The notes under the pieces: model-generated
The model's database searches: none
What the model was told of the DNA's origin: nothing
Seen by the model: only the letters and a program-made list of their open reading frames with translations
Source of the DNA: Octopus vulgaris
Lineage: Eukaryota
Reading direction: 5' to 3'
Length of the DNA: 64,000 nt
NCBI GenBank assembly: GCA_951406725.2
Contig: OX597838.1
Span: 13,206,001 to 13,270,000 of the forward strand
Made by a program: the position numbers and the translations under genes
Part shown: piece by piece, positions 20,630 to 47,757 of the stretch
Layout of the letters: every line of letters begins with the position of its first letter
How positions within the stretch are numbered: the first letter of the stretch is position 1

Positions 20630-20756
20630 GTAAGGAGTTGCTCTCTTTTCATTTACTATTTTCAATTGTTGCAGTACATCCATGTTGCGCAGGGTACATC
20701 ACTTACTAAGAAGTACTTGATAAATTTTGCTGTCCCTTTCATCTACTTACATTTTT

Positions 20757-21715: not shown

Positions 21716-21805
21716 ACATATATACATATATATATATATACACACATACATATATACATTTTGTTTTGTTTGTTTAACATGGTTTTTTTTCCTTTATTTT
21801 TGCAG

Positions 21806-22660: not shown

Positions 22661-23092
22661 TTATTTAAAAGAACTCTGAATAACAGTTCTGTGATAATTT
22701 GGCAGCTTTAATAGAAACCTTACCTGTCATTGTGGCATGAAGCAAAGCAGGCCTTTCCGTCTACTCAATAAAACACACAGTAAATGATCCACAAACACTC
22801 AAGCAAACTGAGTCCTCAATTTGTTCCATTTGCCAAAAGGTTTACAAGGCACCAGCAAGCCTCAAGAGACACATTTGTATCCATAGAACATGAATACCAC
22901 TTTATTTTACTGAACACTCATTTGTCATTCATGACAAAAGAATTCTTCATATATAAATATATATATGAGGTATATTTGCCATAATATGGCTAACCACTAA
23001 GGGTAAATGTTACTGTAGCTTGTAGCCCCAGGAGAACCATCTCCTCCAGCTGGCTATAAACACTTTTTTTATGAATTAATTTTATCCTTCCC

Positions 23093-23140
23093 TCGTCACG
23101 GACTGCAGTTTCTGTGTATTGACCCGTCATCAGTGCACGA
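23093..23140 (-). ncRNA. Degenerate hammerhead ribozyme between direct repeats
   Basis: CTGATGA-cgggtcaatacaca-GAAAC-tgca-GTC; stems I and II partly mismatched. Confidence 0.45.
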
Positions 23141-24098: not shown

Positions 24099-24214
24099 AA
24101 ATGTGTCACTGCCTTAGATAAAACATGGCACCCTGAACACTTCTTTTGTGGTCTTTGTGGACGAAACTTTGGTGATGAAGGATTCCATGAAAGAGACGGC
24201 CAGGCATATTGTAG
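24099..24214 (+). CDS. PXN: Paxillin exon: LIM2
   Basis: ttttctag|AAA and AG|gtcagt; [38 protein letters not shown]; not in the ORF track; phases join the neighbouring exons. Confidence 0.95.
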
Positions 24215-24257
24215 GTCAGTATGAACCTTATTTAAATATGTATATAAACACATAGAA

Positions 24258-24292
<35 letters not shown>

Positions 24293-24629
24293 CATTAAAA
24301 AATATATCACAGACTCACTCTTCTGCCATCAGACAACATATGACAGCTCTGCAATTTCTTGCTGAACAACCACACAAATGATTTGTTTATAGGGATTAAA
24401 ATGTTTGTGTCCACATGAGCCCATTCCCTCCATCAAATTGACATTGTCTGTACATGATGTGCCACATGTCAGATGACAATGTTTGCAGAGCAATATAAAA
24501 TTGTTTTGTTCACGAACACAATTTTAACGCCTGTTCTGGGAATCAAAATCATGACCTTGCAGTTGTGAGTGTGACACCCTAACCACTAAGCCATGTGCCT
24601 TCACCAATATACACATATATATATACGTG

Positions 24630-25168
24630 TGTGTGGCAAGAAATTTGGTTTCAGGTTCAGTCCCATTGCATGGCAATTTGAGCAAGTGTCTACTTCTGTA
24701 GCTTCAGGCCAACCAAAACATGTGAGTGGATTTGGAAAATGGAAATATATACATCTGTGTGTGTGTTTTTGTGTCTGTGTTTGTCCTCATCACCACTTGA
24801 CAACCGGTGTTGGTGTGTTGATGTCCCTGTAAAGTTAGTGGTTCGGCAAAAGAGACCAATAGAATAAGCACCAAACTTTAAAAGGAAAATATACTGGAGT
24901 AAATTCTTTCAACTAAAATCCTTCAAGGCAGTGCTCCAGCATGGCTGAAGTCTAATGACTGAAACAATACCTAAAATAAAAGATATATATATATATATAT
25001 ATAGGCGCAGGAGTGGCTGTGTGGTAAGTAGCTTGCTAACCAACCACATGGTTCCGGGTTCAGTCCCACTGCGTGGCATCTTGGGCAAGTGTCTTCTGCT
25101 ATAGCCCCGGGCCGACCAATGCCTTGTGAGTGGATTTGGTAGACGGAAACTGAAAGAAGCCTGTCGTA

Positions 25169-25211
<43 letters not shown>

Positions 25212-25395
25212 TTGTGTGCTGGTGTGTTTACATCCCCCGTCACTTAGCGGTTCGGCAAAAAGAGACCGATAGAATAAGTACTGGGCTTACAAAAAGAATA
25301 AGTCCCGGGGTCGATTTGCTCGACTAAAGGCGGTGCTCCAGCATGGCCGCAGTCAAATGACTGAAACAAGTAAAAGAAAAAGAAAAAAGAAAAAG
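24630..25395 (+). mobile_element. Two SINE A copies (old 24630-24965, young 25003-25395)
   Basis: Family match. Confidence 0.85.
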
Positions 25396-25554
25396 AACAT
25401 CATCATCGTTTAACATCCGTTTTCTATGTTGGCATGGGTTGGACGGTTTGGCTGAGGTCTGGAGAGCCAGTGGCTGCACCAGGCTCCAATCTGACCCGGT
25501 ACTGTTTCTACAGCTGGATGCCCTTCCTAATGCCAACCACTCTGAGAGTGTAGT

Positions 25555-26290
25555 GGGTGCTTTTTACGTGCCACCAGCACAGGAGTCAGTCAAGTGGGCT
25601 TGGCATCAATCACGTTCGGATAGTGCTTTTTACATGCCACCAGCAAGGGGTCAGTCAGGGGCTGCTGGCATCAGCTACATTTGGAGGGTGCTTTTTACGT
25701 GCCACTGGCATGAGAGCCAGTCGGGGTACTGGCATTGGCCATGTTTGGACGGTGCTTTTTGCCACCAGCAAGGGGTCAGTCAGGGGCTGCTGGCATCAGC
25801 TACATTTGGAGGGTGCTTTTTATGTGCCACTGGCATGGGAGCCAGTCGGGGTACTGGCATTGGCCATGTTTGAACAGTGCTTTTTACATGCCACCAGCAA
25901 GGGGTCAGTCAGGGGCTGCTGGCATCAGCTACATTTGGCGGGTGCTTTTTATGTGCCACTGGCATGGGAGCCAGTCGGGGTACTGGCATTGGCCATGTTT
26001 GAACGGTGCTTTTTACATGCCACCAGCAAGGGGTCAGTCAGGGGCTGCTGGCATCAGCTACATTTGGAGGGTGCTTTTTACGTGCCACTGGCATGGGAGC
26101 CAGTCGGAGTACTGGCATTGGCCATGTTTGGACGGTGCTTTTTACATGCCACCAGCAAGGGGTCAGTTGCTGGCATCAGCTACATTTGGAGGGTGCTTTT
26201 TACGTGCCACTGGCATGGGAGCCAGTCGGAGTACTGGCATTGGCCATGTTTGGACGGTGCTTTTTACATGCCACCAGCACAGGAGCCAGT
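25555..26290. repeat. 129-bp higher-order minisatellite
   Basis: Equivalent positions at 25890, 26019, 26148; each unit is two related ~65-bp subunits. Confidence 0.9.
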
Positions 26291-26627
26291 CAGGCAGACC
26301 TGGCACTGGCCACAGCCGCGATATTGGTTCTACTTGAATCAACAGGTCTTTTCAAGCATGTCATATTGCCTGACGCAGCAAGGGTACTCTTAATTGGGCT
26401 GGATCTGCATGGCTGCAGTCTCACTTTAGTTGCCGGGTCTTCTCAGTCAAAGCATATCTCCAAAGTCTCAGTCACCCATCATTGCCTCTGTGAGGCCCAA
26501 TGTTGCTGCATAGGAAAATTGGACATTTCATTCTTAACACACACACACACACACACAAAAATATATAGACATACACACACACACTTACATACACATCTGA
26601 ATATGTCTAAATCTATATACATTTCAG

Positions 26628-26742
26628 GGAAGATTTTTTGAAGATGTTTGCTCCAAAATGTGGAGGATGTGCTCAACCAATCAAAGACAGTTACATCTCT
26701 GCTCTTAACAGACACTGGCATCCGGATTGCTTTGTTTGTTGG
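26628..26742 (+). CDS. PXN: Paxillin exon: first half of LIM3
   Basis: tttcag|G and TGG|gtaaat; (R)[38 protein letters not shown]. Confidence 0.95.
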
Positions 26743-26904
26743 GTAAATATATATAATCTTCATCTTTTTCTTCTATTTACTCCCCCCCCCCCTTCTTTGT
26801 CTAGTCTTTCACGCGCTCTCTCTCTCTTTTTCCCTCTTATTTCACCTGTTTTTGTTTTCTTTCTCTTCGTTCATTTCTTTCATATAAGAAAATGTTTCTT
26901 GTAT

Positions 26905-27075
26905 AGGCGCAGGAGTGGCTGTGTGGTAAGTAGCTTGCTTACCAACCACATGGTTCTGGGTTCAGTCCCACTGCGTGGCACCTTAGGCAAGTGTCTTCTA
27001 CTATAGCCTCGGGCCGACCAAAGCCTTGTGAGTGGATTTGGTAGACGGAAACTGAAAGAAGCCCATCGTATATAT
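26905..27075 (+). mobile_element. SINE A, 5' half
   Basis: Family match. Confidence 0.85.
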
Positions 27076-27626
27076 ATATATATAGCTTTATGCAAGTATA
27101 TATGCTGAGAGACAACATATATATATATATGCAGTTATAGGCAACAATTGTATACACACACACACACACTTGCCATTTCTCTATATTTTCACTTTCAGTT
27201 TCCAATGCACCCCTTATTATAGGCACAACCTTTACAGTTTTCATACTCCAAATTCTTGCCATTTCAAATTTTAAGGGTTTGTATTTAAAAAATGTTGCGT
27301 CATCTTCTTGACAATCCTGGCATCAAAGGGACATGGTGAATCAATTAGAAGGCAGCTTCATTTTTCCTCATCTATTATTGTTATGTCTGGTTTATTATTA
27401 TTATTATTCTTATGGTGGCAGGATGGCAGAATCGTTAACGTGCCGGGTGAAATGTTTAGCGGTATTTCGTCTGTTGTTACGTGCTAAGTTCAAATTCTGC
27501 AGAGGTCAACTTTGCCTTTCATCCTTTCAAGGTCGATAAATTAAGTACCAGCCAAGTACTGGGGTCGATGTGATTGATTGTCCCCCTCTCCACAAAAATC
27601 CATGCCCAATGCCTATAGTAGAAAGG

Positions 27627-27657
27627 ATTATTATCATCATCATCATCATTATTATTG

Positions 27658-27703
<46 letters not shown>

Positions 27704-27920
27704 TATTATCATCATCATCATCATCATTATCATCATCATCATTATTATTATCATCATTATTATTATCATCATCATCATCATTATTATTATCATCATTATT
27801 ATCATCATCATTATCATCATTATTATCATTATCATCATTATCATTATCATTATCATCATTATTATCATCATCATCATTATTATTATCATCATTATTATCA
27901 TTATTGTTATTATTATCATT
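27627..27920. repeat. (ATC/ATT)n microsatellite directly before the last paxillin exon
   Basis: Seen directly. Confidence 0.95.
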
Positions 27921-27924
27921 GCAG

Positions 27925-28209
27925 CAATGCCAGGTGCCCTTTGGAAATACAAGTTTCTTCGACCATGATGGCCTGCCATACTGCGAACAGCATTACCATG
28001 CCAAACGAGGCTCCCTGTGTTCCGATTGCCAGCAGCCAATTACTGGGCCGAGCATCATAGCCATGGGTCGCAAGTTTCACCCAAAGCATTTCACGTGTGC
28101 CTTCTGTCGTAAACAACTGAACAACGTCACCTTTAAGGAACAGAATGAGAAACCCTACTGTCACCCCTGCTTCAGCAAACTCTTTGCCGGGACGAAGATG
28201 ATGGATTAA
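27925..28209 (+). CDS. PXN: Paxillin last coding exon: end of LIM3, LIM4, stop
   Basis: ttgcag|CAA; [35 protein letters not shown]...[11 protein letters not shown]...[18 protein letters not shown]. Confidence 0.94.
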
Positions 28210-29636: not shown

Positions 29637-31039
29637 GTACGCACATACATGCATGCATCTATATGCATACAAAGGTTACATACACAATAAAAAAATGCAA
29701 GAGTTTAAAAACAAAAGCCTTATACAAAAAAATACAATAATAACAATAATAATAATTGCTCCTAAAAAGGGGTAGTTGTTTTGTTTGGATATTTTTCTTG
29801 TTTGTTTGTTTTTTTCTTTTTGTTTTGTAGATTTATTTAGTCGGTCCTGGAGTTGGATTTATATTATATCATATTATACTATACTATATTATATTATATT
29901 TCAAAAATAAAATTAATATGATGGTTTTTACATATATTTTGTTTGGAGTGAATTATTCTTAACTTGTTGGAAAAAAAAAATTATGATAAATGAAAATATA
30001 ATTTTACAAGGTAGGGTTACAAGGTGTGACCCTCATCCTGTCTTAAGGTAAAAAGTTTGATTCCCAAACTTCTCACCACACAGCTATTTTTCTCTGCAAA
30101 AATTGCTGAACTCTTTGGTTTTGTAGATTTGCAATCTGCATGGTTTTCTCAATAGTGCTAGTGGCATGCAAAAGCACCCGGTATGCACTGTGAAGTGATC
30201 GGCATTAGGAAGGGCATCCAGCCACAGAAACCATGTCAAAGCAAACACTCAAACACAATGCAGTCCTGGGGCACATTGGGTCTTTGTCAAACGATCCAAT
30301 CCATGCCAGCATGAAATATGGACAATAAATGGTGATGATGATATAGTGTTTTTCACAGTTGATTGTGTTTTCACACTTGTCAATTCATAGAAATTTCTCC
30401 AGGGATTACTTAAATGTGTTGGATATGACTTTATATGAATATATTTTACCCAACACTACTTTGTGTGGCTTTATGTATTCAATGCTTGCCTGACAAAGCT
30501 TTATGCACATCAGTATATGCACAATATGCTATTATAATATATATAAATGAATTTGTTCTTACTGGGCTGTGAATGACAGATTTGTTCTTCTTAGTTGACA
30601 ATGCAAAACAACATAGAAAGACGTGCATCTTATTCATAGCCCAATGTGTTTTCATACATGTTGAGGAGAATTTTTTCCTGGAACTATTTGCACAATGGAA
30701 AGTTTTCCACATTTGGGTGTGCTTGAGCATGTAAATACAATGAGTGTATACACACACACACGGTTTGTGGATTAACTATGCTGTTGATAATTTTATCCAA
30801 AATGGACTCAGTTACTGACACCCTAAAGTGGAATGAATGGCTGAAGAATTGTGAATTTTTACCCATATGAAACCAGCACTATTGATCCACACATAAAGAA
30901 TATTTAGCCACCAAATGTAGTTTTAATCACTCATTCTCACTGTTCAATTCTATCTATCTATCTACCTATCTATCTCTTTGTCTCTCTGTCTGCCTGTCTC
31001 TGTTTATCTGCCTATCCATGTATCTGTCTGCCTGCCTGA

Positions 31040-34000
31040 TCCCTACATACCTTGGTCATAGGGCCACAAAAATTAAAATCAAAGATGTGCCTCCTGAGAT
31101 ACAAATAACATGGCTTGTGTCTGCCATTTGTTATGATACTGAGGAGGCTATCCACATCTTAGAAATCACTGTCTTAGACCAGCAAAATTGGATTGCTCAA
31201 GGAGTAGAAATCCTTGCTCAAGTTGATCCAATCAGTATTGAAATTATTCCACATCTCATCAAACTGGCAGACGGTTCGAATTTACATGAGGCTGTCGAAG
31301 GCAGAAAGCCACATTGCTATGTTTATGGTAGCAAACTACACTTAAAAATTAATTGCCCATTAGCACAGAAACAACAACCACAACAAGTAAACCAAAAACC
31401 AAGAATAAAAAACAGCTCTGCTACCCACACCACCATATGCACAACTGATAAAACAGCTCTACCAACAAATGAAAGAACATCAGCAAACAACAAACCAGCT
31501 CAACTAATGGCATCCTCATCAGCGCCTCCAAGAACAGAAACAACAACACCACCACCAACAACAACAACTCCAAAGAAAGAAGAGAAAAACAAAAGGACTC
31601 ATACTCCACCCTCCAAAACCCATATACCACACACCAACCAACACCGATAACAAAATCAACATTAAATAGACCCCATTTCCTGGGAATGGCTCAACCTTTA
31701 CATTAAATAGACCCCAACACCCTTTCCCTTCCACAAAGGATTGGCAAGTGACCACAGGGGGAAGGAGAAAAAGGGGGGAAAAGAATAGAGAAACAAACAA
31801 ACAAAGCAGGAAGGTTTACCACCCCTGAAACCAAAAAACCCGCAGAAAACAAAAGCATTAACACAAACACCAAATGGCCCCACAATGTTGACAGCTATAA
31901 ACACTAATAATTCAGACTGAATGGAATACATTAAGTCAAACACCAACATAGCAGAAAACGATATCAAAACAAATAATCACCCACGCACAACACATTAAAA
32001 TCATGCATATAACACAGGACATACACAACACACTGAAATCTCTCTACCCTGATGCAGTAGGGAGATTTCAAAAATACCTGTCTAAAAAACTACAAAACAC
32101 TTCTGGGAGAAGACTGAGGTGGAGGACAAACAACTTTCAAACACCGAGTGACTCTCTCTCTTTTTCATCTTTCTTTCGTGTGAAAAACACAACTTTTGAT
32201 AGGAGCATGCTCAGAATAGGTTTTTATAAATGTACGTGGCTTGGGGTTGCCTTGGAAACAAGGCTACCTGTCATTTAACAGTCACAGAATGTGCATATCA
32301 TAGTCATCAGTGAGACCAGACTCCACAACCAGTAGGCCCTCCAGCACATGTTCGGTGGACATTTTAACATTTGTTTTTCTCCTTGTCTGCTGAGAATGGG
32401 TGGAGGTAGTACCACGGTGCTTCTTCGGAAGGGTATGGGCCTCAAAGTAAGAGCAATATTCCTAGACCCAGAGGGTAGGCTGGTCGTCTTGGATGTCGAT
32501 GGCAGTAATGGGTGTGCTTTTCGACTGGTAACAGTTTATGCACTGTCCTTAACAGGTCGGCTAGATTACTTTTGATGTCTAGAGGTTTTCCTGGGAACAG
32601 CTCAACCGTTACTTTTAGTGGGGGATTGGAACACTACCTTGGACACGTATCTAGACTGCTTGGGTAGAGATAGTAATAGGAGGAGATGTAAATTCCTCAA
32701 AGACCTGCTCAGACGTTTCCAACTGTCTGGACCATGTGCCAATGTGGACATGGTGCAACCGCATCAGATTGTTCAGATCATATTTAGATAGAGTATTCTG
32801 TAGGACAGTGTAGGTTGTCCACAATTCCATATAGTCAGCTACACGGATCACAAATTTGTGACTTGTATGCTTGACTTAGAGAAGAGCCACATGCAAGGCC
32901 CTAGTTAATGGAAGCTGAATGCGTCGTTCACAGGATGCCAGGCTTAGAGGGACTGGATTAGCACATTAGGTTAAAAGAGCATTGACAGGCGCCATCGTCA
33001 ACAAGAGATGGTGGTTTGCCCTAAAGAAAGCAATTAAAGCAGAATTGGTTAGGTATAGTAAGGCTCTAGCATTAGACTGAAATAGAATAGAGGGAGACCT
33101 AGATAAGAAATTAGAAGAGGCGCTTAGAGCTGGCATCGTGTCCAACGTACTGGTGGCAAGGTTGGCTCTTGACCAACACTTCAATACCGGACATGAAGGA
33201 TGCATTGTCAGAGCTAGGATACGTGCTCTGAGGAATGAAGGGGTTGGAGCCACCCCAGTGGTGGAGGCATAACAAGGCAACAAAGCCACCATTAGGTCTC
33301 TGACAGAAGAACAAGAGCGCAAATTACTTGAGCCCAAAAGGATGTGTGAGGCCTTTCAACAACACTTTGCCTGACTGTTTGGGACAACTAGTGGGTCAGA
33401 ACACAGGGTGGACTTTAGTGCCTACCTGCTTGGCCTGCCACAAGTCTTGGCAAGAGAGGCAGAGTGTTGTGGAAGACCCATCACAGCCACAGACGTATGG
33501 GATGCGATGGCAGGCTGCACAGGAGACAAGTTGCCAGGCTCAGATAGTCTGCCCTATGAACTCTATTGTCATATGCCAGACTTGTTTGGAGGTGTCTTGA
33601 CAGCTGTCTACTGCAGCTGGCAGCAAAACGGGAGTATTTCCATTTCTGTGAAGTGAGGAGCAGTGGCACTGCTAAAGAAAAATTCAAACAAGGGGAACGT
33701 CATAGATAACTTCAGGCCCATCACTCTGTTCAATGCAGATTTGAAGTTTTTGGCCAAGGTGCTAGCTGAGAGGTTGGCACTTGTCATTGAGAAACTGGTT
33801 GACAAGGCACAAACATGCACTGTGCCGGGCAAGAGTATCCATGATAACCAGCATCTGATGTGCTACCTCATAGAGAAGATAGTTAAGGAACCTGGCATTG
33901 GTGGGGCACTGATCAATTTGGATCAATCAAAAGCTTTTGATAGGGTCAACCATCCCTACTTGAAGGCTGTCCTTAGAGAGGGTGGTTTCAGTCCTGTTTT

Positions 34001-34588
34001 AAACAGAGGCATCCGCTTGGTAGTTCGCTGTCCAGACCATTTAACATCACACGTTCGGTCCATCAAGGATGCCCCCTCTCCTCGCTTCTGTACGTATTGA
34101 CTCTGGAGCCACTAATGCAGAAGCTGGCGATGCTGAGGGTCATCCCACGAGAAGTGGTATTTGGGAGGAGTGTGTCTGCATACGTGGATGATGTCACCGT
34201 AATAGTGTCGAGCCGCAGGCATATCGACCCGATTGGCAAGACACTAAAAGAATACGGAGCAGTAACGAGAGTAAAAATTAACTAGGAAAACTCAGTGGGC
34301 TTGCAGCTCGGCACCTGGAGAAGGAAACCTATGCCATTCAACAGTGTCTTCATCATGGGACGCTGGACCAACAGACAGGTTAAATTGCTCGGGGTCTGGT
34401 TCAGTTCGGAGCTCCAAATGGATAAGAACTGGGACAAGATAATGAGTAGGGTGGCTACTCTCATCCAGCAATGGGCTGAGAAGAAGCTATCCCCAAAAGG
34501 CCTTCCTCTTTTTTCTCTTTTGAAAAGAAAAGCTCTACATTGTATTTTATCCCCTCTGTGTTCGGCCATGTGTGGCTAATAAAGAAAG
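31040..34588 (+). mobile_element. Decayed Tx1/L1-like LINE (ORF1 remnant, APE endonuclease, RT)
   Basis: ORF1 with EGRKPHC..H....CP; endonuclease fragments (DPEGRLVVLDV); RT motifs FRPITLFNADLK, INLDQSKAFDRV, SAYVDDVT; many stops; ends in AATAAAGAAA; flanked by (TATC)/(TGTC) repeats. Confidence 0.88.
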
Positions 34589-36790
34589 ATATCTATCCAT
34601 CTATCTATCTAATTATCCCTCTATGTAATTATCTATCTAATTATCCATCTATTTAATTATCTATCTAATTATCCATCTATTTAATTATCTAGCTAATTAT
34701 CCATCTATTTAATTATCCATCCATCCATCCATTTAATTATCTATCCATCCATCTATCTATTTAATTATCTATCTACCTACCTGCCTGTCTGTCTGTCTGT
34801 CTGTCTGTCTAGCTAGCTAGCCAACTGTTGTTCACCGAGTTCCATTAATGACACTTGTATATAATAATGTTTTGTTTTTTTTGTTTTTTTTAAATGCTCA
34901 ATCATTAGTAAGCATTCCCCAGTGGATCAAGCACAAATTGAAGGTAGCTGTCTTGGTGCCTAAATGTCGAATGCTCACATCCCTCTCTAACAGTTGGATA
35001 TCAGTTTGGTAGAGTGTCAATCATTAGCACTTACGTTTTATAGATGTTTAATGGAGAGTAATATGAACAACAGTTGCTTTTGGGGATAGCCTGGGTCCCT
35101 ATGAAGGATAATATGTACAGCTTTTTTCGAAGACATTTCAGATTCGGAACTATAAATATTAGGTCGCGCGCGCGCACAACACAAGGGAAATAACCATTGC
35201 AATAATTCTTAAAGGATTACGTCCCTTTATGAAAATTCATTTATCCTTTTTGTACCATTTGTTCCAGTATGGAATCTTGCGTAACGTCTCGCTCATGTTC
35301 AAGAAATGGGTCTACTACGTCTCTATCTTATTTTATCTGCAGTGGAATAATCGCTAGGATTCAGCATGAAACCATTAGGAATTACAACCGTGTTTCGTGG
35401 TCTGCTACCACAACATCTCCTTTATAGGATCCAGTTAGCTCAAGACATCATCAGGAGGAACCACGTCTGGTTTCGGCCCCTACTCATCTACTGTTTTGAC
35501 GTCCCCCCCCCTTTCGGAGGTGTCTTCAGCTCTGGTGTTGGGTGCATGTCTTCTTTCTTCTGTTCCCTGGCCTCTTCGGTGTATCGTCAGCGAGTGTCAG
35601 CCGGTGACTGACTGTCTTGTCAAATTTTTCCCTTAAAAAAACCCACCTATTATTCTATATCTAAAACCATGTAGCCTGTATATACTGGCCCACAGCCCCG
35701 TCTCGAACCTGCTGCAGTGTAACTTATCAGCGATTAGATTGTAATCGACTGGCCCCTCCCGCGAAATCACTGGACATGCCGAGCAAAATGCTTAATGGCA
35801 TTTTGTCCATCTTACGTTCTGGGTTCAAATTCTGCCGAGGTCGACTTTGCCTTTCCTCCTTTCGCAGTCGATGTAATCGATTTATCCCCACCCCCCACCA
35901 AATTGCTACCTTTGTGGTAAAATTTATAACTATTACTATTGTTGTTGTTATTTGAAGGCGGCGAGCTGACAGAATAGTTAGCGGCATTTCGTCTATCTTT
36001 ATGTTCTGAGTTCAAAATCTGCTGAGGTCGACTTTGCCTTTCATCCTTTTGGAATCGATAAATTAAGTACCAGTGAAACATTGAGGTCGAAGTTATTGAG
36101 TAGTCCCCTCCCCCAAATCTTAGGCCTTGTGCCTTTATTATTATCATTATTATTATTATCATTATTATTATTATTATTTATTGAGTGAGAGAGCAGTGCA
36201 TGTCATCAAAGTGAAGCCCAGTATACCCATCATGACTACCCGTCTGATAAGGGTACATCAGGTACATGTATCACAACAATATGTGCACAACATGGTGGTC
36301 TTATATCAAGATAAACAGTACATGACCTTGCAGGTTGGGGCCCAGTTAGAATTTTTTTCGGGTTGAGTAGCCCATCCCACTCAGAAGGTCCCTGAATAAG
36401 GTTTGTTTAAGGATGATGAATGAAACACCCGTGTTTCCAGAGGTGAATTATCCAAACCCCAAAGAATCCCTCTCAACACATGGCTATGATGCTACCCCAC
36501 TACTTCTTCTCGTGATCAGAGATGCACATATCGTCAGCTACCAAGGAACATGCTCAGCTGGTTACGGTCAAACAACTGACAAACAAATCTGTGGTATTGA
36601 GCAGAATATTTGCTGTAGCCCATCTTTTATACCAAGACAAAACAATGTACATGAAACAATACCAAGGAAGGAAACACAAAGGAGGGTAGCTGTATCGAAC
36701 TCCTTCCTTCACCAAAAGCCAATTACATGGAGTTGAGCAAGTAAAAGATGATTATACTAGCAGTGCCCGAGCATGGCCGCGGCCCCAGGT

Positions 36791-36906
36791 CTACCAAATC
36801 CACTCACAAGGCTTTGGTCGGTCCGAGGCTATAGTAGAAGACACTTGACCAAGGTGCCACGCAGTGGGACTGAACACAGAACCATGTGGTTGGGAAGCAG
36901 GCTTCT
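36791..36906 (-). mobile_element. SINE A head fragment, cut by the ORF1-only elements
   Basis: Stops abruptly at GGAAGCAGGCTTCT. Confidence 0.8.
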
Positions 36907-39139
36907 TTATTTCATTACATTTGCCATAAAGGCAGTACATAGAGTAAAGTAGCTTTGCGGGCTGGACAAGGACATTAATGAAATGAATGATAATGAAAGA
37001 AAGATGATAAGGATGGGAGAAGACAAAAAGCGCCCGCCGACTTCTGCTTCTCTAAAACATCGTTCTTTAAAACCAAACACAAAACGAGGTATTAAACCTC
37101 TTACAACTTTTGGACTTAACAAACAACATAGTTCAATAATTACATATATATAAATACAATACACAAAGCCCCTCCTCCCAGACCTGGCTTACGCTTCCCT
37201 CAGGCAATGCACCAGCTCTAGGTCGGGGCCCCAGAAGGCGTATCTAAACATGTCCTTTGAGAAGGTGTTCATTACCCTGACCATAGCGACATCCGATATG
37301 ATCTTCGTAGTCACCTGCGAAGACCACTCCTCGTCCTCTGTCCAGGGCATGGGCTCCTCCCTCTGGGAAGCAAGTTTCTTTGTTTTATCAAACATCAAAT
37401 ATACATTATCACTTTTCCCTTTCTCCTCTTTCCGGGGACCCCAGTCAAATATCTAGCCGCCTGCAGAGCAGACCACGTTGACAGCCGGGAGTTCAGAAAT
37501 AAGGCGAAGTGCCTATTATCAAATGTTTGTGTCACACAGTGCCACAATTTATAATTCACCCTCAACATAACTTGTGCCCACATCCTCCACGCATCTTTCA
37601 AGATCGAATCAAGTTCCGTATCAGCGATATTCCTCATTGAGCCCCTTCAGCCTAAACGTCTCGTCAAACGTTATGGCCTCCACAGCTATCTGCAGAGGCC
37701 ATTTGGGATCCTGTGTGAAGGCTAAAGGTGCTCCCTTATGGTGCTTTTCCACCACCTTTTCAACCTCTCGACCTCTATAGAAGAAGATCAATAATTCGTC
37801 TTCCTCCGGGGGCGGGATATTCAATTCTTCCGTTGGCGGCACAGTACCCGCCAACGGTGTTTCTTCTCCTGCCGGTGGCACAACCCCAACCGACGTAGTT
37901 CCAGGATATTCCGGTATTAAGGCACCGACTGCCGGAAATGTTCCGTTTCTCTTCCTCTTTTTTTTTTCTTTTCAACTGAGGAAGGGTGCGTCTCCTCCGT
38001 GACCGGGAGATTCGCCTTCCCCTCCTCATCTCTAGGATCCTTCGGTGAGCACCCATTGTTGCTCACCTTCTTCCTCCTTCGGCCCCTGTTTGAGGAGTCC
38101 TCCGCCTCCTCGGCCGCTTTCATTCCCTCTTCTACAGAGGTCTCACTCAACAGCTCCGGGATCTTATTTTGTTCCTGGGGACAGTTTTTCTTTATATGGC
38201 CGGACTCCAGGCACCGATGACACCTGGGGGAGAGCGACCCTCAAATAGCAACCACACCGTTGCGTATTTGACACCCCTGGAAATGAATTTAATTGTTGGC
38301 AAATGCTCTGCCAACTCCTTTTCAATTGCCGTCTTTTCGAATAGGGCGATGGTGTAGCATGACTTGGAGTAGGTTCTCAACACCATCGTCCCATCTTCAC
38401 GGTCTTTCAACTTTTTGGGCAGTATAATCTCCCTCTCCAAAACTTTGTTTTTTTTTCATTGCCACCCCACCCCTTTTTTTTTGAAAATATTTTCAAAATA
38501 AAACTTAAAAAGAGAGAAGTAAAAAGAAATCAAAAGAAAGTCACAATAAACAAAAAGGAGAAAGTCAAATAAAGTTTAGAAGAAAGAAAGTCAATAGTTC
38601 AGAAACACAGCAAAAAAAAAAAATCTTCCAGCCATTCGGTACTCCCGGCTTAGGTTGAACCCGGAACGCCACAACTGGAACACAACTTCCACAAAAATTG
38701 ATATACAAATTGTTCAATCTTCGGAGGCAAAGACACTCGCCTAAACAGTAGTTCTCACAATTATTTTAAAATTCTTCAAAAGGCACAATACTCCTCCAAG
38801 CAACAATTAAGTGAGAAAATATTCCTCCAAGCAATAAATAAGTGAGAAAAATATTCACTCAACATAAACCGAAGACGAATACGCCCCTAAACAAAAATTC
38901 TCACAATTCAGCGAGAAAAAATATTCTCTTCATGCAAGCAGAACCAGAATTCTGAATCCAGTAGGACTTCCTGCCTGTACAAAAACAATTCTCAACAAAA
39001 ATTCCCACTGGACCCCCACCAAAAAAAAACAGAATCTTACCTTGCAATGGAGCTTCAAAATTTTTCAATTCGAGACGGCTTCCAAAGCATGTCTCATCGC
39101 TTTGGTGCCAAACACCACAATAATTCGCACATGCGCAGT
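36907..39139 (-). mobile_element. ORF1-only non-autonomous LINE derivative (HAL1-like), copy 1
   Basis: 2.2 kb; broken ORF1 38440->37189 with CCHC knuckle CHRCLESGHIKKNC; no EN/RT seen; ends AATAAAGAA; TSD GGAAGCA(G/A)GCTTCT at 36893-36906 and 39140-39153. Confidence 0.7.
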
Positions 39140-39153
39140 GGAAGCAAGCTTCT

Positions 39154-40560
39154 TTATTTTATTAAATTTGCCACAAGGGCAGCACACAGAGAGAAGCTTG
39201 TGGGCTGGACACAGACATTAATGGGACGAATGACAATGATACAAGGATGATAAGGATGGGAGAAGAAGAAAAGCGCCTGCCGACTTTCGCTTCTCTAAAA
39301 CATTGTTCTTTTTTTTCTTTTTTAAACACACAATGAAGCGATAAACCTCTTACATAGTTCAGACGTGGAGGCGCAATGGCCCAGTGGTTAGGGCAGCGGA
39401 CTCGCGGTCGTAGGATCGTGGTTTCGATTCCCAGACCGGGCGTTGTGAGTGTTTATTGAGCGAAAACACCTAAAAAAGCTCCACGAGGCTCCGGCAGGGG
39501 ATGGTGGTGATCCCTGCTGTACTCTTTCACCACAACTTTCTCTCACTCTTTCTTCCTGTTTCTGTTGTACCCGTATTCCAAAGGGGCCGGCCTTGTCACT
39601 CTCTGTGTCACGCTGAATATCCCCGAGAACGACGTTAAGGGTACACGTGTCTGTGGAGTGCTCAGCCACTTACACGTTAATTTCACGAGCAGGCTGTTCC
39701 GTTGATTCGGATCAACCGGAACCCTCGTCGTCGTAACCGATGGAGTGCTTCCATCCACATAGTTCAGAATTAAAAACATACACGAGGCAACAATCCTCTA
39801 ACTTTTTACATTTTACAGAGTCGTTTTGAGGTAATACACCTCTTACACAATTGTCCCACATTTCAATTTTTCTGTCAGGCCAGGCTCCTCGCTTCATTGA
39901 AGCATGTAGTCGGTTCCAAGCCGGACCACTTGGCCATATATCTAAAGGAGTCAGCTGGGAAGGAATTCATTATCCTGCACGGATCGTTACCCCATATGAC
40001 CTCCGCAGTCACCTGCAAAGGCCACTCAGGGTCCTCCATGCGGGACAGAAGGACCCTCCCACCGGCCCTTCCTTAACAATTTTCCTAATCGAATTTTGTA
40101 ATGTCCCTCCCTTATGGAAGAGGACTACAAATTCCTCCCCCAGCGGCTCATCCGCCGAAGAAGCATCGGGACATTGCCGGCAGCGTGTCACAATGTCCCG
40201 TTTTTCTTTTTTCTTTTTTTTTTTCCCCTTGGACCGCGGGAGAGTGGGGTCCCTTTGCTGTGTCCAGCAGGTTCTCCCTTCATCCCGCAGCCCTCGGGTC
40301 CTTCGGTGGGCAACCCACCTTTCGCTTTCGTTTTTTCGAGGAGGTTTCCACCTCCTCGACATCCTCCTCCTTCTCTCCCGCCAATAAGGGAGCAGGGAGT
40401 GATGCCCCTATTAACTGCTCTAGGACCCTATTTTAGTCATTGGGGCAGTTTTTCTTGATGTGGCCGGTTTCTAGGCACAGGTGACATTTGGCGGGGGTGG
40501 GGCGTCCCTCGAGCATCACCAGACTTTCGGCTGATTGGGTCCATAGGGTCAAAACAGCTT
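39154..40560 (-). mobile_element. Related ORF1-only element, copy 2 (5' truncated)
   Basis: 3' ~200 bp homologous to copy 1; knuckle CHLCLETGHIKKNC near 40445-40490; interrupted by a SINE. Confidence 0.65.
39364..39756 (+). mobile_element. Young tRNA-derived SINE (family C)
   Basis: A box TGGCCCAGTGG, B-box-like GGTTTCGATTCC; 12-bp TSD ACATAGTTCAGA at 39352-39363 and 39757-39768; an older relative at ~14805-15555 is split by a CR1 fragment. Confidence 0.85.
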
Positions 40561-40946
40561 TTATGGAATGATGTCAAAGTAACACACATGCAGTCCCAAC
40601 CGGGCGAGGGCGTGTTATGCTTGTGTAAGAAAAAAGCACATAAAAACATCTCTAGTTTTCATTTATATTGCAACAGCTAACAGTGAAATATAGAATTTAA
40701 AGATGGCTTTTTCGACCATTAGATTGGTGCAGCTAATATGGCAGGTAAACATCGTGGTTGCCAAGCAGAAATAAAGAAGATTCGGCCTCTAGTCCAATAC
40801 GTGCACTGCTGTGCTCATGTTCCTCAGCTTATAGCTAAGTCCGTTCAACAAGCTTCATTTATCAAAAATGTTCTCGATTACGTGAATGGATTCGGGAAAC
40901 TATATAGTACATCAGAGAAATTTAAGCACGCATATTTATTACAATA

Positions 40947-41251
40947 CTAGCAGTATCGCCCGCCGTTGCTCGGGTTTGTGAGGGAAATAACTATATAAGC
41001 ATTTTTAGAGAGTTACTTCCCTTATATAAACCGAGCAAAAAATGCATCAAAAATGCGGAAAAATGATGATAATTTTTTTTTTTAATCGTAGACTCATCGT
41101 AGACGCGCGCTAATACCCAGAAGGGCTCGATATGAATGACGACTATAAGATACCCGCTTTTGGTTAAACTGCACCGCAAAATGTGGGAGTAGTTAGGAAT
41201 CTAAATCGGAGTAGACAGACCCTCACACAACTTCAGTTTTATATATAAAGA
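40947..41251 (-). mobile_element. Non-autonomous Helitron
   Basis: 5' TC, 3' GC hairpin plus CTAG, A|T insertion; removing it restores the hAT frame LLQY-NEENEV. Confidence 0.85.
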
Positions 41252-41708
41252 TAATGAAGAAAATGAAGTATCGTTACCACGCTCCTTAAAACCTGTGTGC
41301 CCTACTCGATAGCTAACACGACTTCCTGCAGTCAAAGCCCTTCTTGAAATTATCCAGATGTCCTCATTTCTCTACAAGAGTCATCAAATGTGTTTGGCAC
41401 CAACGTTGCGTCCAGTGCCAATGGTATTCTTACGTGTCTCTCTACGGGCCAATATGTTCTTGTATTGCATGTTGTTAGTTCCGTTACTTCAACTCCTTGA
41501 AGGATTGAACAAATCTTTTCAAAGTATCACCGTCAATCTAGACGGAATGTTGCGTAGTGTCAAACTAGTGCAGGATGAGCTAAAAAAAAAAATCTACGCA
41601 GGGAAGAAAAATTTCAGGAGCTGTTCAATACAGCAGAGAAAATGATTTATCAACTCGATATTTCTTCTTTGGAGCTATCAAGACAACAAAAACTTCCTAA
41701 AAGATACC

Positions 41709-41924
41709 TATTTCTTTACTACCCACAAGGGTCCAAACAAGGACAGACAAACGGATTAAGTTGATTACATCGATCCCAGTGCATAACTGGTACTTAATCT
41801 ATCGACCCCGAAAGGATGAAAGGCAAAGTCGACCTCGACGGAATTTGAACCCAGAACGTAACGGCAGACGAAATATGGTTACGCATTTCGCCCGGCGTGC
41901 TAACGATTCTGCCAGCTCGCCCGC
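41709..41924 (-). mobile_element. SINE B inside the hAT remnant
   Basis: 16-bp TSD CTTCCTAAAAGATACC. Confidence 0.9.
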
Positions 41925-43659
41925 CTTCCTAAAAGATACCAGGAAGGAAATGCGTTAAAATATCAACGCTGCACTGTTTTGGATCATTGCAGGGTGCAGT
42001 ATTTGCAAGTAGTGGATACTGCAATAGCAAATTTGAAAGATTTTTTTTTTCACAAGATTTAGCAGATTGTGAAAAACTGAGCAATATTTTACTCAATGGA
42101 AATTTTTGTGCTGAAATGATCAGTATCCAAAGCTTGATGAATTTTCCTTAAGGAACGAAATACTTTTTTTTTATAGAAATCATCTTAGTGGATCATCTCT
42201 CGAGGATCATCGTAAAATATTTGGTGAACAGCAACCAGTAGTCCATCGCATGTTTCCAAATGTTGAGCGATTGCTCAGGCTATTTTTAGTGTTTCCAACC
42301 AGTTCTTGTGAAGCTGAAAGATCTTTTAGCGCTCTGGGGAGACTCAAAACTTGGCTGCGCTCGACCGTGACTCAGCAAAGGTTGAATCATATTGTAATAT
42401 GACTCAATGACTCGCATGTTTCCAAATGTTGATCTCAGGCTACTTTTAGCGTTTCCAACCAGTTCTTGTGAAACTGAAAGATCTTTTAGCGCTCTGGGGA
42501 GACTCAAAACTTGGCTGCGCTCGACCGTGACTCAGCAAAGGTTGAATCATATTGTAATATGACTCAATGACTCGCATGTTTCCAAATGTTGAACTCAGGC
42601 TACTTTTAGCGTTTCCAACCAGTTCTTGTGAAACTGAAAGATCTTTTAGCGCTCTGGGGAGACTCAAAACTTGGCTGCGCTCGACCGTGACTCAGCAAAG
42701 GTTGAATTATATTGTAATATGCCATGTTCATAGACATGTTTAGAAAAAAATTAGTTGTGAAAAAGTTGCTAAATTATTTACTGACGGCAAGATATATAAA
42801 ACATTTGGAAAATACTAAAAGACAATAATTTTCCTTAATATTTTTTATTTAAGAGCCTTTGTTTTATATTTTGTTTATTTGATATAATAAATTCTTTTTA
42901 AGCTTTTTTTTATAACTGAACTTCATTTGAATATATAAAATTTAATTAGCATAAAATTTTAGTAATGTGATAGGGTCCGGGAAAGGCACCATAAGCAATA
43001 CCAACATGCTCCTTTTAAGATTCAGCAAATGTTGGTTTGTCCCCCTCACATTTTCACGGAAAATAAGGCCCCTAGTAGCAAGGATGCACATGCTGGCATA
43101 TATGGAAGATGCGATCAGAATGTGTAGAGAACACAGTATATAAAAATATAGGGAGAAATAAGTATTAGAAGTGGGGGGGAAAGGGAAAAGGAAGAATATA
43201 TAAGGGAGTGAGAAGAGGGAGAAATTTAAGCAAGGTCAATTGACTGTTGCTAAGCAAAAACTGTATTGGTTGAATCACAGAATTTAGTAAGGGAATTGGT
43301 ATTTGAAGGAAGGATAATTTGGAGGGGAGTCGGGAAGAAAACGAAAGTGTGCATGAATAAAGCAAGATAGAATGGGGAATTTAAGTACGGTTAGTTGACT
43401 AATGGCTTTCTGGCCGAATCACAAAACTATGTACTTGTGAGTTTACGGAGAGAGAGGGTTGGAGAGGGAGAGGCAGTTGAAATAAAAACAAAGAACAAAA
43501 TTTTTAAAAGGTAAAGAAAAATACGGAGAGAAGTGTGTAATTGACAATAAAGGAATTAAACTGGAGAAATAGTGTTGGTTTAATATATAGTGGTAGTGAG
43601 GATGGATAAGAGGGAAAATTTATGAAGGTTAGAGGAGAGGGGTTGTAAATATTTGTATT

Positions 43660-44596
43660 TTGAGAATAGATTTAGTGACCGATGCTGCGTTCATTAAGAC
43701 AATCCACGGATTGCAGAATAGCCAAGACTTCGGCTATGCAGAGATCACTCTTGTTATTGTTACAGCTGTTGTAAAGCTCGGCGTGGGTGACTATGGACCA
43801 CGAGAGAGTGTAAAGAGCTGAATCAGGCGCTTGTTTACTGATAAGTTGGATGTACTGTTGGATTTTGTTTGGAACTTGAAGCTGGAGTAGTGGCTGTTCA
43901 CTCTATAAATGTAGTTACAGTTGGCAGTCGATACTGTACACTTATAAACAATATTTTTTGTGAGACAGCGGTTATCTAAAGGATAGGGGGTTGGGCATCT
44001 GAAGTTTTGCAGGCTGTGTTCCGGATGAACTTGTGAGGGGATTGCTATTTAGTGTGGAATCGGTGTTAGGTTTGTTATTATTGCTGGCGTTAAGATTAGT
44101 ATTTGTTAAGGAGTTGAGGGTGGTGTTGTGGGTAGGGTTGTACAATATGCTAGTTATTGTGTCTGGTGGAATCCTCTGTGTTGTTCTTTATTATTACAGG
44201 AGGTATAGTTGGGCGTCGTGGTAAATTTAGGCATCGGGTGTTAGTAGTAGAATTATAGTTGGAGTTATGAATGTTAGTGTTTACCAAGGGGGTCGATTTG
44301 TTTTGGATTTATATGTATGGAACCAGGGGTTATTTTGAGTTAATTTATTAGGGCGGAGAGGTTAGCTGGCTGTGAATTTCTGAGTTTCTTGTTAAGATGC
44401 CAGACAACCCCGGCAGTGTTGATAGCGGAGGAGTTGTACAATTTCATAGATTGGGGGTTAAATAGTTTTGTAAGGGGGCTAGATTTGGGGAAATGTTTCT
44501 CGAGTAGGACGAAGAAGAGTTTAAGGATTCGAGTCTAAACGTTAAGGGCGAAGGAAGGGAGCGGTGGAACCAGATACCACACCAGGTTCTAGTTCG

Positions 44597-44600
<4 letters not shown>
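43660..44600 (-). mobile_element. Penelope-like element remnant (RT linker and GIY-YIG endonuclease)
   Basis: LLEKHFPKSSPLTKLFN and PLDNRCLTKNIVYKCTV...HYSSFK resemble PLE C-termini. Confidence 0.7.
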
Positions 44601-44629
<29 letters not shown>

Positions 44630-44819
44630 CATATAGATATATACATATATATTTATGTGTGTGTGTGTGTATGTATGTTATATATATGTTATATATGCGT
44701 AATGTGAATATGTATATACGTATGTGATAAGTATGTGTGTATAAATGTGCATATGTATATGTAAGTGTGGATGTGTGTGTATGTGTTAGGTAGGAAGACG
44801 GATCGAATGTTTTTTTTTT

Positions 44820-45100
44820 TTATTTTGAAAGAATTTGAACAATTGTCAGTATTGGCAATAGAAAGAGAAGTGGTGTTGGACTTTTGGTGACAGACGAAGG
44901 GGACGCAGAACAATGAGTGTTGGAATTAGTGTGCTTTCTTGTGCAGGAAGAATATCCCATGACCACTGCAAGGTAGTTTTGCTCTTTGACTCCGCTGATC
45001 AGATGAGACATCGGTCCTCGGGCGTAAGCAACGACGTCCTTCCCGCCATGGGTTTCATCGGCCAGAGGAACGGCACTTTGTTGTAGGTATTTTTTCAAAG
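44820..45100 (-). CDS. ALPL: Alkaline phosphatase terminal exon B (distal, duplicated), with GPI-signal-like tail
   Basis: gtctag|CT acceptor in phase 1; TLKKYLQQSAVPLADETHGGKDVVAYARGPMSHLISGVKEQNY...YSSC...LLFLLPILTIVQILSK*. Confidence 0.85.
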
Positions 45101-45261
45101 CTAGACGATTTAAAGAGAAAAAAGAAAAGCGAAAATTAATTAATAAATAAAAACATATAAATTATTTAACACTCATCTACACCCCTCACACACACACATA
45201 CATACATACATACATATATACATACATACACACAAACATACGTACATATATACCTACATAC

Positions 45262-45488
45262 AGCGAGCTGGCAGAAACGTTAGCACGCCGGGCGAAATGC
45301 GTGGCCGTATTTCGTCTGCCGTTACGTTCTGAGTTCAAATTCCGCCGAGATCGACTTTGCCTTTCATCCGTTCGGGGTCGATAAATTAAGTACCAGTTGC
45401 GCACTGGGGTCGATATAATCGACTTAATCCCTTTGTATGTCCTTGTTTGTCCTCTCTGTGTTTAGCCCCTTGTGGGTAGTAAAGAAAT
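45262..45488 (+). mobile_element. SINE B
   Basis: Family match; TSD TATATACCTACATAC. Confidence 0.85.
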
Positions 45489-45569
45489 ATATATACCTAC
45501 ATACATATATACATACATATATACATACATACATATATACATACATACATACACACAAACATACATATA

Positions 45570-45603
<34 letters not shown>

Positions 45604-45661
45604 CATACATACATATATACATACATACATACATACATACATACATACATACATACATACA

Positions 45662-45695
<34 letters not shown>

Positions 45696-46699
45696 CATAC
45701 ATACATATATACATACATACATACATATATACATACATACATACATACATATATACATACATACATACATACATACATACATACATACATACATACATAC
45801 ATACATACATGCATACATACATACATACACATATTTATATATACTTATAATTTGCTTGTTGAAAGAATTAATCTTAATAGATTTAAAAGCATGCTAGACC
45901 ATGCATCATGCTCGGTTTACAATAATCTGCTCGGCGAGATCAAATCCTTTAAAAATATAAAGAGAAAATATAAAGAAAAATATAAAGAGAAAACTTGCTT
46001 GTGTCCCTGGATGCATAACAGACATTGGGGATCTTTTCCTTTTGAAGGCCAGATTTCAACACAATTTCTAGTTAACTAAACACTTTAAAACTTCGTATAC
46101 TGGTAGAATGTGTCAAAAGAAAACATTATTTTCACTTGGCTTTCTTGATAAATTTGTAATTCGTTTGTTTAACGTAGTTTGATTTTTCGAATTTTAACCA
46201 ATGAATCGTCTCTATTTGAGCTGAAATCATTTGCTGCGTCTAAAAACTGAGACAACATCTAGCGTGTCGGAAAGGAAGAGAGGGAGAAAGAGAGGGGGGG
46301 GGTTGAAAAAATGAGAGAAAGGAAAAGATCCGAAATTGGTTAGCTCATTTCCATCTTTTCTTGTTTTATTTATTAACGATGGACCTTGGAGGGGATTTTT
46401 GGTCTCCTGCAGTAGGTATACGCTGGAGGATTTGCCTGGACTGTAAATGTCAATTTTCACTCGTGATTGCAAGTCGACATGCTACTCGAAATGCTTTAAC
46501 ACTTTTCAAGTCACCATATAACGCCTGATACTATATGTCCACACTATCTGATACGTCTCATCTTGGCGGATAGGCTGTGTGTCAAGGGATCAACGTCTTT
46601 ATCGCATATTGTAGCCTCGTAGCAATAAATAAAGAATTTTGAATGTCTTAATTCCAATATCCCAGAATGAATGAGACAAATAATATACGGAAATGGACT

Positions 46700-47160
46700 C
46701 GTTTGCTACTTTCAGAAATCATATTGAAACTCCGACGTTTGGCAGCTGACTTGGCAGACACCCATAAAATTATTAACCATCGTACAAACAATAACTCTGA
46801 GCACCTTTTCAAACTCCACCCATCTAACACCCGTGGACATGTTTACAAAGTCAGAAAACAGCACAACTCCCATGACTTCAGGAAACATTTTTTCACGCTG
46901 AGAGTTGCTGAAGCGTGGAACAAACTGCCAGCATCAGTTGTTAGTTGTCGGAGCACTGCATCCTTCAAAACTTCCATGCTTCCTGAGATTCGCCAACACT
47001 ACACTTGATTTTCTCCCCTCCATACACACACAAGTATGTATCTGACTCATACATTGTTCGCTTTCCAGACATTTCTACATTACTGCATGTACTTTATATG
47101 CACTTTCTGACAAGTTGTGGTGCACCTGAGCACTGTATACAATTAATTTCATTATTATTA
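46700..47160 (+). mobile_element. CR1-type LINE 3' fragment
   Basis: RRLAADL..HKII...TRGH...[17 protein letters not shown] plus (ATT)n tail. Confidence 0.85.
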
Positions 47161-47382
47161 TTTTTTTTTTATATATAAAAAAAAAACTAGAAATATTCGC
47201 TGCGACTCTGCGTTGATGAAATTTTTCAGATTTTAACTTCTCAACGTAAACTTCTTAACAGTAAAAGGGAGAGAGGGTTATCTTGTATGCACGTCAACAA
47301 ATATGTATTTAAAAATTACAGTTAAATTAAAAGTTACTAAAATTATAAATATATAATTATAAGGCATTAAAAAATTTATATA

Positions 47383-47757
47383 CTCTTTACTCTTTTACTT
47401 GTTTCAGTCATTTGACTGCGGCCATGCTGGAGCACCGCCTTTAATCGAGCAACTCGACCCCGGGACTTATTCTTTGTAAGCCCAGTACTTATTCCATCGG
47501 TCTCTTTTGCCGAACCGCTAAGTAACGGGGACATTGTCAAGCAATGCTATGGGGACAAACACAGACACACAAACATATACATATACATATATACGACAGG
47601 CTTCTTTCAGTTTCCGTCTACCAAATCCACTCACAAGGCTTTGGTCGGCCCGGGGCTATAGTAGAAGACACTTGCCCAAGGTGCCACGCAGTGGGACTGA
47701 ACCCGGAACCATGTGGTTGGCAAACAAGCTACTTACCACACGACTACTCCTGCGCCT
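47383..47757 (-). mobile_element. SINE A
   Basis: Family match. Confidence 0.9.

Follow-up and report, generated by a model that had tools for sequence, protein, structure and literature searches.

Three ORF1-type retroposons lacking ORF2, stacked at one nucleotide of a SINE head in Octopus vulgaris, suggest a SINE-targeting family

Non-autonomous long interspersed nuclear elements (LINEs) that retain the first open reading frame (ORF1) include HAL1 (half-L1), HeT-A and Ag-Sponge, whose source clades are named as L1, Jockey and CR1 in the accessible parts of two reports (PMC5786205, PMC5753468). Target-specific insertion is described, in the accessible text of a third, for Tx1 (into Tx1D), Tx1-Mar (Mariner-N4_AMi), Tx1-8_Crp and Tx1-4_AMi (long terminal repeat (LTR) elements), Tx1-9_AMi (Harbinger), Keno (U2) and Kibi and Koshi (microsatellites), and also for SINEU-3 of crocodilians, tandem copies of which sandwich a 16-nt target-site duplication (TSD) (PMC4494074). 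Non-LTR families specific for transfer RNA (tRNA) genes are known in other clades (PMC4640811, available in part). Octopus vulgaris has 80 L1-Tx1 families, 13 of them recently active, and the portion of the source available to us does not mention their targets (PMC13282606). Here we analyse a 64,000-nt stretch of O. vulgaris DNA (GenBank assembly GCA_951406725.2, contig OX597838.1, positions 13,206,001 to 13,270,000; hereafter the window), in which three related elements, X, Y and Z, are stacked at one spot in the head of a short interspersed nuclear element (SINE). This arrangement suggests a family that targets that SINE. Our preferred explanation, held with moderate confidence, is that X, Y and Z are ORF1-only, non-autonomous retroposons of the L1/Tx1 group, mobilised in trans by a sequence-specific partner.

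The locus lies on the minus strand and reads Z, target, X, target, Y, target, SINE body. Element Z (39154-40561; 1003 bp without a SINE insert, 5' part missing), delimited by tblastn with the Octopus sinensis protein P0001 described below, ends at junction J3 (39140-39153), which holds the target copy AGAAGCTTGCTTCC. Element X (37380-39139, 1760 bp), carrying an ORF1-type frame with four frame changes, ends at junction J2 (37366-37379), where a third target copy, AGAAACTTGCTTCC, is preceded by a tail like those of Y and Z. Element Y (36907-37365, 459 bp, 5'-truncated) ends at junction J1 (36893-36906), where the target copy AGAAGCCTGCTTCC is in register with the SINE head and is directly continued by the body of the host SINE, termed SINE A (36789-36892; located by blastn and alignment), the first ~22 nt of which are replaced by the stack. 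All three 3' ends meet one nucleotide of the SINE head in the same orientation. The locus thus displays a common polarity, one 5' truncation, a duplicated target, three junctions at a single nucleotide, and ORF1-type coding sequence without ORF2.

A first-pass annotation, made from the letters alone, had placed a shared 14-nt motif at the ends of two related minus-strand elements. The observation was accurate: copies showing 0 mismatches to the pattern lie at 36893-36906 and 39140-39153, both 3' ends abut the motif, and the 3' regions of Y and Z are 79% identical over their last 205 nt. At both J1 and J3 the element ends in AATAA, followed by AGAAGCYTGCTTCC. The stack is likewise real, although it comprises three elements and not two, a one-mismatch copy of the motif being present at 37366-37379. 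Over 27 nt of junction sequence, J1 and J2 each match J3 at 24 positions; the next best site in the 64 kb reaches 19/27 (8 mismatches), and the best found in 2000 dinucleotide shuffles of the 2233-bp region between J1 and J3 reaches 21/27 (6 mismatches).

This third copy divides what had been described as one element of 2233 bp, "copy 1". Its span (36907-39139) was correct, but it is composite. In blastn, Z ("copy 2" in the earlier description) aligns to the distal part of copy 1 starting at 37366, with no homology upstream; for the sequence upstream of J2 against the corresponding part of Z, 119 of 500 DNA and 1738 of 2000 protein shuffles do as well, whereas X's own copy of the C-terminal domain (~37810-37590) does match Z there (2 of 500 DNA and 6 of 2000 protein shuffles as good). 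The target copy at 37366-37379 and the break in homology at the same point together indicate that copy 1 consists of X (1760 bp) followed by a 5'-truncated Y (459 bp). A single reading frame is open over 37452-37189, crossing J2 through the motif, and so conceals the junction. The open frame is also the argument for reading copy 1 as a single 2233-bp element with a duplicated C-terminal domain and an internal motif that is chance coding sequence. That reading is largely refuted and very improbable, because the second domain copy, in Y, is nearer to Z than is X's own (DNA scores 112 vs 50), while chance coding sequence at J2 is rejected on the 24/27 junction match and on the ending of Z homology at the motif.

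Assignment of the motif to the SINE head, proposed at first pass, is supported by the flanking sequence. Past 36906, 118 nt of SINE are 86-94% identical to other copies, with 13 other copies in the window aligned over 115-118 nt (blastn), and variants of the motif occur at 14327-14340 and 5829-5842. Since the motif runs on in register into the SINE body, it belongs to the SINE and is more than the element's own end, with some ambiguity over the assignment of AGAA. Only the first ~22 nt are missing from the host copy. A census of the window gave 19 blastn matches to the SINE, 17 of which cover the target site. In four of these heads (the host and those at 4184, 5829 and 14327) the site starts with AGAAG or AAAAG and ends with TTCC, while the remaining 13 are of an AGTAG type with a weaker palindrome. 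The three empty TTCC-type copies are more diverged (mean identity of 0.62-0.84 to the AGTAG type) than the host body (0.93).

The duplication around copy 1 had been given as a TSD of 14 bp. A duplication is indeed present, but its two 14-mers differ at 1 position and AGAA had been counted twice; as these letters may belong to either the tail or the motif, the length is 10-15 nt, of which 14 nt is plausible. J3 contains the inverted repeat GAAGC-NN-GCTTC, on which a 14-nt duplication is exactly centred. Within the 64 kb, the 12-mer palindrome is confined to J1 and J3, J2 having one arm mutated, and the duplicated segment ends 0-2 nt from the same base each time.

The origin of these repeats could be different if the 14-mer were carried on the element RNA by read-through of a donor flank and guided insertion by annealing, in which case the repeats between elements would be element-borne and not true TSDs. 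Consistent with this, the host body is as near to the AGTAG-type copies as those are to each other (mean 0.93), yet the target it carries is the rarer TTCC type, as though overwritten; R1Bm, moreover, requires downstream target sequence for accurate reverse transcription (PMC7265360, accessible in part). We give this model little credence, since all three motif copies share an end at the base from which the SINE continues, with only single transitions between them, like ordinary TSDs, and the host could just be a well-conserved copy of the TTCC type that has lost its diagnostic 5' part.

Another candidate for the true target is a tRNA gene family, or some other small-RNA gene, with the SINE head struck through resemblance. 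The site lies between parts of the head that resemble an A box and a B box by eye, and the tRNA-gene-specific non-LTR families NeSL-1_TV, LIN15_SM and LIN25_SM are precedents (PMC4640811, in its accessible part). Neither ARAGORN nor Rfam finds a tRNA match in the SINE head, however, and the flank of J1 is SINE-specific body and not tRNA; we consider a tRNA target doubtful. The window contains no tRNA gene on which this could be tested. The SINE consensus also holds CCTTGGG, a stretch listed as conserved in CORE (PMC5786205, partial text); the host is a candidate CORE-type SINE and may correspond to octopus OR1/OR2. Elsewhere in the window, at 5823-6111 (+), a SINE A copy starts exactly at the target position (5963), joined behind an older copy at an AAG(A/T)AGC similarity; this fusion probably arose by recombination or template switching, and its breakpoint coincides with the insertion site.

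The three elements share a C-terminal domain of ~90 amino acids (37810-37590 in X, 37365-37192 in Y and 40140-39878 in Z, all on the minus strand) that follows a lysine-rich linker. X begins with a ~680-nt 5' region, followed by an ATG at 38459, an N-terminal ORF1-type part, an internal deletion of ~107 amino acids at ~38240, a CCHC knuckle (~38228-38178), a low-complexity linker, the C-terminal domain and a ~60-residue extension; its stop codon (37397-37395) lies 15 nt from the junction. The four frame changes of X are located at homopolymer runs and stem from decay or assembly error. Y retains the final 58 codons of the C-terminal domain, a stop at 37191-37189 and a 282-nt 3' untranslated region (UTR) with a tail ending in AATAA. 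Z retains the end of a second region resembling an RNA-recognition motif (RRM), the knuckle, the linker, the C-terminal domain, a stop at 39877-39875 and a 316-nt 3' UTR. The first-pass description of ORF1 with a CCHC knuckle but no endonuclease (EN) or reverse transcriptase (RT) agrees with this content, except that the ORF1 of X is far from intact and the knuckle matches Pfam zf-CCHC at E 0.0019, under the gathering cut-off. A Pfam scan of 15 pieces returned zf-CCHC, a hAT dimerisation domain and one spurious low-complexity match, and nothing else.

Homology to a LINE-like ORF1 is provided by P0001, the uncharacterized O. sinensis protein LOC115225585 (281 residues), which was the sole match among 93 candidates to the N-terminal frame of X (66% identity, E 1.2e-17) and matches the stack as a whole at E 7e-27. 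Its residues 4-76 and 187-279 align to X, with hardly any match in between, which defines the ~107 residues absent from X, and it aligns to Z from residue 152 with a 14-residue gap (53% identity by tblastn with residues 152-280). Over the knuckle region, amino acid identity is 39-41% between X and Z, 43% between X and P0001 and 53% between Z and P0001, and Y and Z are 41-42% identical in the C-terminal domain. Divergence of 39-53% identity over the knuckle region marks three distinct subfamilies and not local duplicates; under our preferred explanation, X, Y and Z are copies of three diverged subfamilies of ORF1-only LINEs of the L1 group, probably of Tx1 type.

With P0001 itself as query, zf-CCHC was the sole Pfam match at E<=1, the vertebrate L1 ORF1 family going unmatched, and a sequence search of the PDB gave nothing for the L1 ORF1 protein (ORF1p). 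Its Atlas neighbours are clusters of CCHC/RRM type, ZCCHC3-type RNA-binding domains among them (scores 0.89-0.93; structural template-modelling (TM) score <=0.46). The AlphaFold model of P0001 is unreliable (predicted local distance difference test (pLDDT) 33) and has an RRM-like order of strands and helices; a fold search with it gave no match at E<=0.001, the top Foldseek match being a tandem RRM at a non-significant E of 0.01. A model of the C-terminal domain was also unreliable (pLDDT 49.5). A CCHC knuckle combined with RRM-type domains in ORF1 is a feature of the Tx1 clade.

The non-coding parts show further features. RNA folding of the 3' ends gave z=-3.4 for Y and z=-0.3 for Z; given the latter value, we claim no conserved 3' structure. 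Short GAGG-N-CCTC hairpins occur in the 3' UTRs, one in Y (37100, -) and two in Z (39842 and 39798, -), and are possible recognition signals. The 5' region of X (39139-38460, -) opens with a GCGCATGTGCG motif, which we take to be NRF1-like, and includes a 31-bp tandem repeat at 38787-38856 and putative splice-like signals (GT at ~39040; a pyrimidine tract and AG at ~38504).

To search for ORF2, a profile was built from seven relatives of a neighbouring decayed two-ORF LINE (ORF1, EN and RT; 31030-34588, +), which served as both relative and positive control. In 91 segments of the stack the best profile match had E 2.1 and the best tblastn match 0.12, compared with E 1.4e-39 for the same profile on the control LINE. 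All three elements pass from the C-terminal domain to the 3' end without ORF2. A candidate ending of X in an ORF2 tail was unsupported, its 83-residue terminal frame matching a full ORF2 (P0006) at E 3.1.

The elements might nonetheless be copies, dead and with internal deletions, of ordinary two-ORF target-specific LINEs; no self-perpetuating ORF1-only family would then stand behind them. Deletion is evidently common here: X has a private internal ORF1 deletion, Z a smaller one, and the neighbouring LINE has also lost the end of its ORF2, for which matches stop at 34501. We find this account improbable, because Y and Z, at ~42% protein identity, both run from the same domain through the stop into a shared 3' UTR with no trace of ORF2, and X likewise lacks ORF2 with a different end.

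The neighbouring LINE links the stack to the L1 group. P0001 matches it at 31036-31359, in the ORF1 position, with E 1e-6; direct comparison of the stack with this LINE detects the knuckle alone (E about 0.6-0.9), so that the stack coding region is tied to LINE ORF1 indirectly, through P0001. Among solved structures the RT of the LINE is nearest to L1 ORF2p (E 6e-11 vs 0.007 for R2), which places it in the L1 group by PDB match, its seven database relatives being unnamed. With P0001 as the link to this LINE, the first-pass label of a Tx1 derivative is plausible. End-anchored comparison finds the terminal 60 nt of Y and Z similar to the 3' end of this LINE (2/1000 and 4/1000 shuffles as good), and the tail AATAAAGAA, found 10 times in the window, ends it as well. 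After the RT, the end of its ORF2 has been lost. A TATC/TCTA microsatellite flanks the LINE on both sides, and it is possibly a (TATC)n-targeting element like Kibi and Koshi; sitting in that microsatellite, it is a relative of the stack and not the partner for the SINE site.

Under our preferred explanation, each element would have been reverse-transcribed in place, through target-primed reverse transcription (TPRT), with the endonuclease and RT of an autonomous partner whose recognition site, AGAAGCTTGCTTCC, lies in one subfamily of SINE A heads. A sequence-selective endonuclease of the apurinic/apyrimidinic (APE) type would nick the bottom strand at the site's T-rich edge, and the TTCTT primer thus freed would pair with an AAAGAA-like RNA end. 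For SART1Bm and R1Bm, a LINE 3' end is proposed to anneal to its target (PMC7265360, accessible portion). A second nick at a distance of ~14 nt, mirroring the first across the GAAGC-NN-GCTTC palindrome, would leave both strands cut after GCTTCY. Each insertion would restore the target, now behind the element's own tail, allowing later insertions to stack. ORF1p may have been retained to package its own RNA or to co-assemble with the partner proteins, by analogy with HAL1 and HeT-A.

Several observations weigh against this explanation. The first-pass proposal of repeated insertion into a fixed SINE site is upheld insofar as three ORF1-type elements without ORF2 meet at one nucleotide; all the evidence comes from one locus and one SINE copy, and 16 of the 17 heads covering the site are empty, including three of the four with a TTCC-type target. 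By the criterion in the available text of PMC4494074, a target-specific non-LTR family has >20% of its flanks in one repeat; locally, three of three 3' junctions share the target, all of them in a single SINE copy. The first ~22 nt of the SINE and the outermost duplication, which would form the outer 5' junction, were not found in 39100-47700, and no true TSD is therefore demonstrated around the whole stack; a hAT fragment at the broken 5' end of Z likely marks the deletion that removed this junction. X and Y could have arrived as one read-through unit formed elsewhere, and the insertion order of X, Y and Z is unreadable from a single locus. None of the three copies has an intact ORF1. The C-terminal domain had no relatives in two large protein searches, one among longer proteins with the C-terminal frame of X (37624-37971; 0 matches among 397 candidates) and one with a profile of the three domain pieces, in which one alignment row ran across J2 (0 matches among 1.84 billion representatives). 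P0001 ends at a lysine-rich run just before this domain, whose fusion to ORF1 is therefore putative. A very diverged ORF2 tail in the 60-residue extension of X could be missed by the profile; local, unanchored comparison of the 3' ends with the neighbouring LINE is weak (43/500 and 11/500); and no autonomous partner with this target was found in the window.

With 16 of 17 heads empty, stacking itself appears to be favoured at this locus. The first element may have reached the SINE through a chance insertion at an ordinary T-rich nick of the L1 type, with later relatives targeting the element tail and the sequence following it, so that the SINE is incidental. All three insertions lie in one of the 17 available heads, the bottom strand reads TTCTTT/A at every junction, and the tail AATAAAGAA is shared with the neighbouring LINE. 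TTCTTT/A is an L1-like nick context. We think self-stacking unlikely while allowing it some weight: of the 10 occurrences of this tail in the window, only J1, J3 and the end of the neighbouring LINE go with such an element, the duplicated segment is palindrome-centred with ends 0-2 nt from the same base each time, and SINE A heads make up little of the window.

Beyond the preferred explanation, a more speculative and rather unlikely scenario is a long-lived ORF1-only Tx1-type lineage acting as a double hyperparasite, which borrows LINE enzymes and uses the SINE head as a safe harbour, with the palindrome cut symmetrically and escape of the SINE possible. The dominant SINE subfamilies (13 of the 17 heads in the window) carry substitutions in both palindrome arms, which could represent escape from targeting in a SINE-LINE arms race over the insertion site.

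Other insertions surround the stack. The 3' UTR of Z contains an unrelated SINE-like insertion (39352-39768, +) of 393 bp (39364-39756) with a 12-bp duplication (39352-39363 and 39757-39768) and weak blastn relatives at 14936, 15482 and 24604; its position inside Z makes Z the older of the two. The hAT transposase fragment adjoining the broken 5' end of Z (40562-42780, +; limits approximate) is not part of the element and matches Dimer_Tnp_hAT at 42115-42399 (E 1.4e-07). It lacks the N-terminal half, contains 2.9 copies of a 160-bp unit from its C-terminal coding region (42246-42721), and is interrupted by a SINE at ~41704-41927. The window is AT-rich animal DNA, dense in microsatellites and SINEs, and carries exons of LIM-domain (20345-28209, +; paxillin-like by eye) and alkaline-phosphatase (61539-61868, -) genes, between which the stack sits. 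Tandem arrays are present at 25556-26294 (64/129-bp units) and at 20756-21307 (184-bp units built from SINE fragments).

If our preferred explanation is correct, SINE heads are to be counted among the repeats in which L1/Tx1-group elements have a fixed landing site, and ORF1-only derivatives can inherit target specificity and retain it over deep divergence. Placement of the second nick is an open question in TPRT, and a short palindromic target with a symmetric 14-nt stagger offers a direct test of how an APE-type LINE endonuclease positions it. Such stacks also mislead repeat annotation, since X and Y read as a single element with a frame open over the junction.

In the literature searched, which did not include Repbase or Dfam, so that an earlier description is quite possible, no ORF1-only Tx1-type element and no LINE targeting a SINE head was found; the available portions of PMC8869645, PMC4758252, PMC3747384 and PMC9115989 added nothing to the comparison. 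P0001 resembles the stack in its 66% identity to the N-terminal part of X and 53% to Z and supplies the region deleted in X; unlike the stack elements, it ends before the C-terminal domain. Compared with target-specific Tx1 LINEs, the stack elements are similarly placed at a fixed point in another repeat and stacked in tandem, but those LINEs are autonomous, whereas X, Y and Z lack ORF2, and the accessible text of PMC4494074 names no SINE head as a target. SINEU-3 is likewise a non-autonomous retroposon with borrowed Tx1-type specificity and tandem copies around a TSD; it is non-coding, derived from small nuclear RNA and targets Mariner, in contrast to the stack elements, which encode ORF1 and target a SINE. 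With HAL1, HeT-A and Ag-Sponge the stack shares ORF1-type coding sequence only, the lack of EN and RT, a LINE-like 3' end, 5' truncation and target duplication, its coding region being homologous to LINE ORF1 by way of P0001. It differs in an ORF1 of RRM/CCHC type without a Pfam match to the vertebrate L1 ORF1 family, in the absence of a poly(A) tract at the junction, in insertion at a fixed internal sequence, and in its probable affinity to Tx1, a clade outside the L1, Jockey and CR1 sources named for those elements in the parts of the reports available. The vertebrate-type L1-clade ORF1p of HAL1 in the strict sense is lacking. ORF1-only LINEs and target-specific Tx1-type insertion are each known separately, and their combination was not encountered in the literature searched; by analogy, the stack would work like a HAL1-type passenger of a target-specific Tx1 element without being HAL1 in the strict sense.

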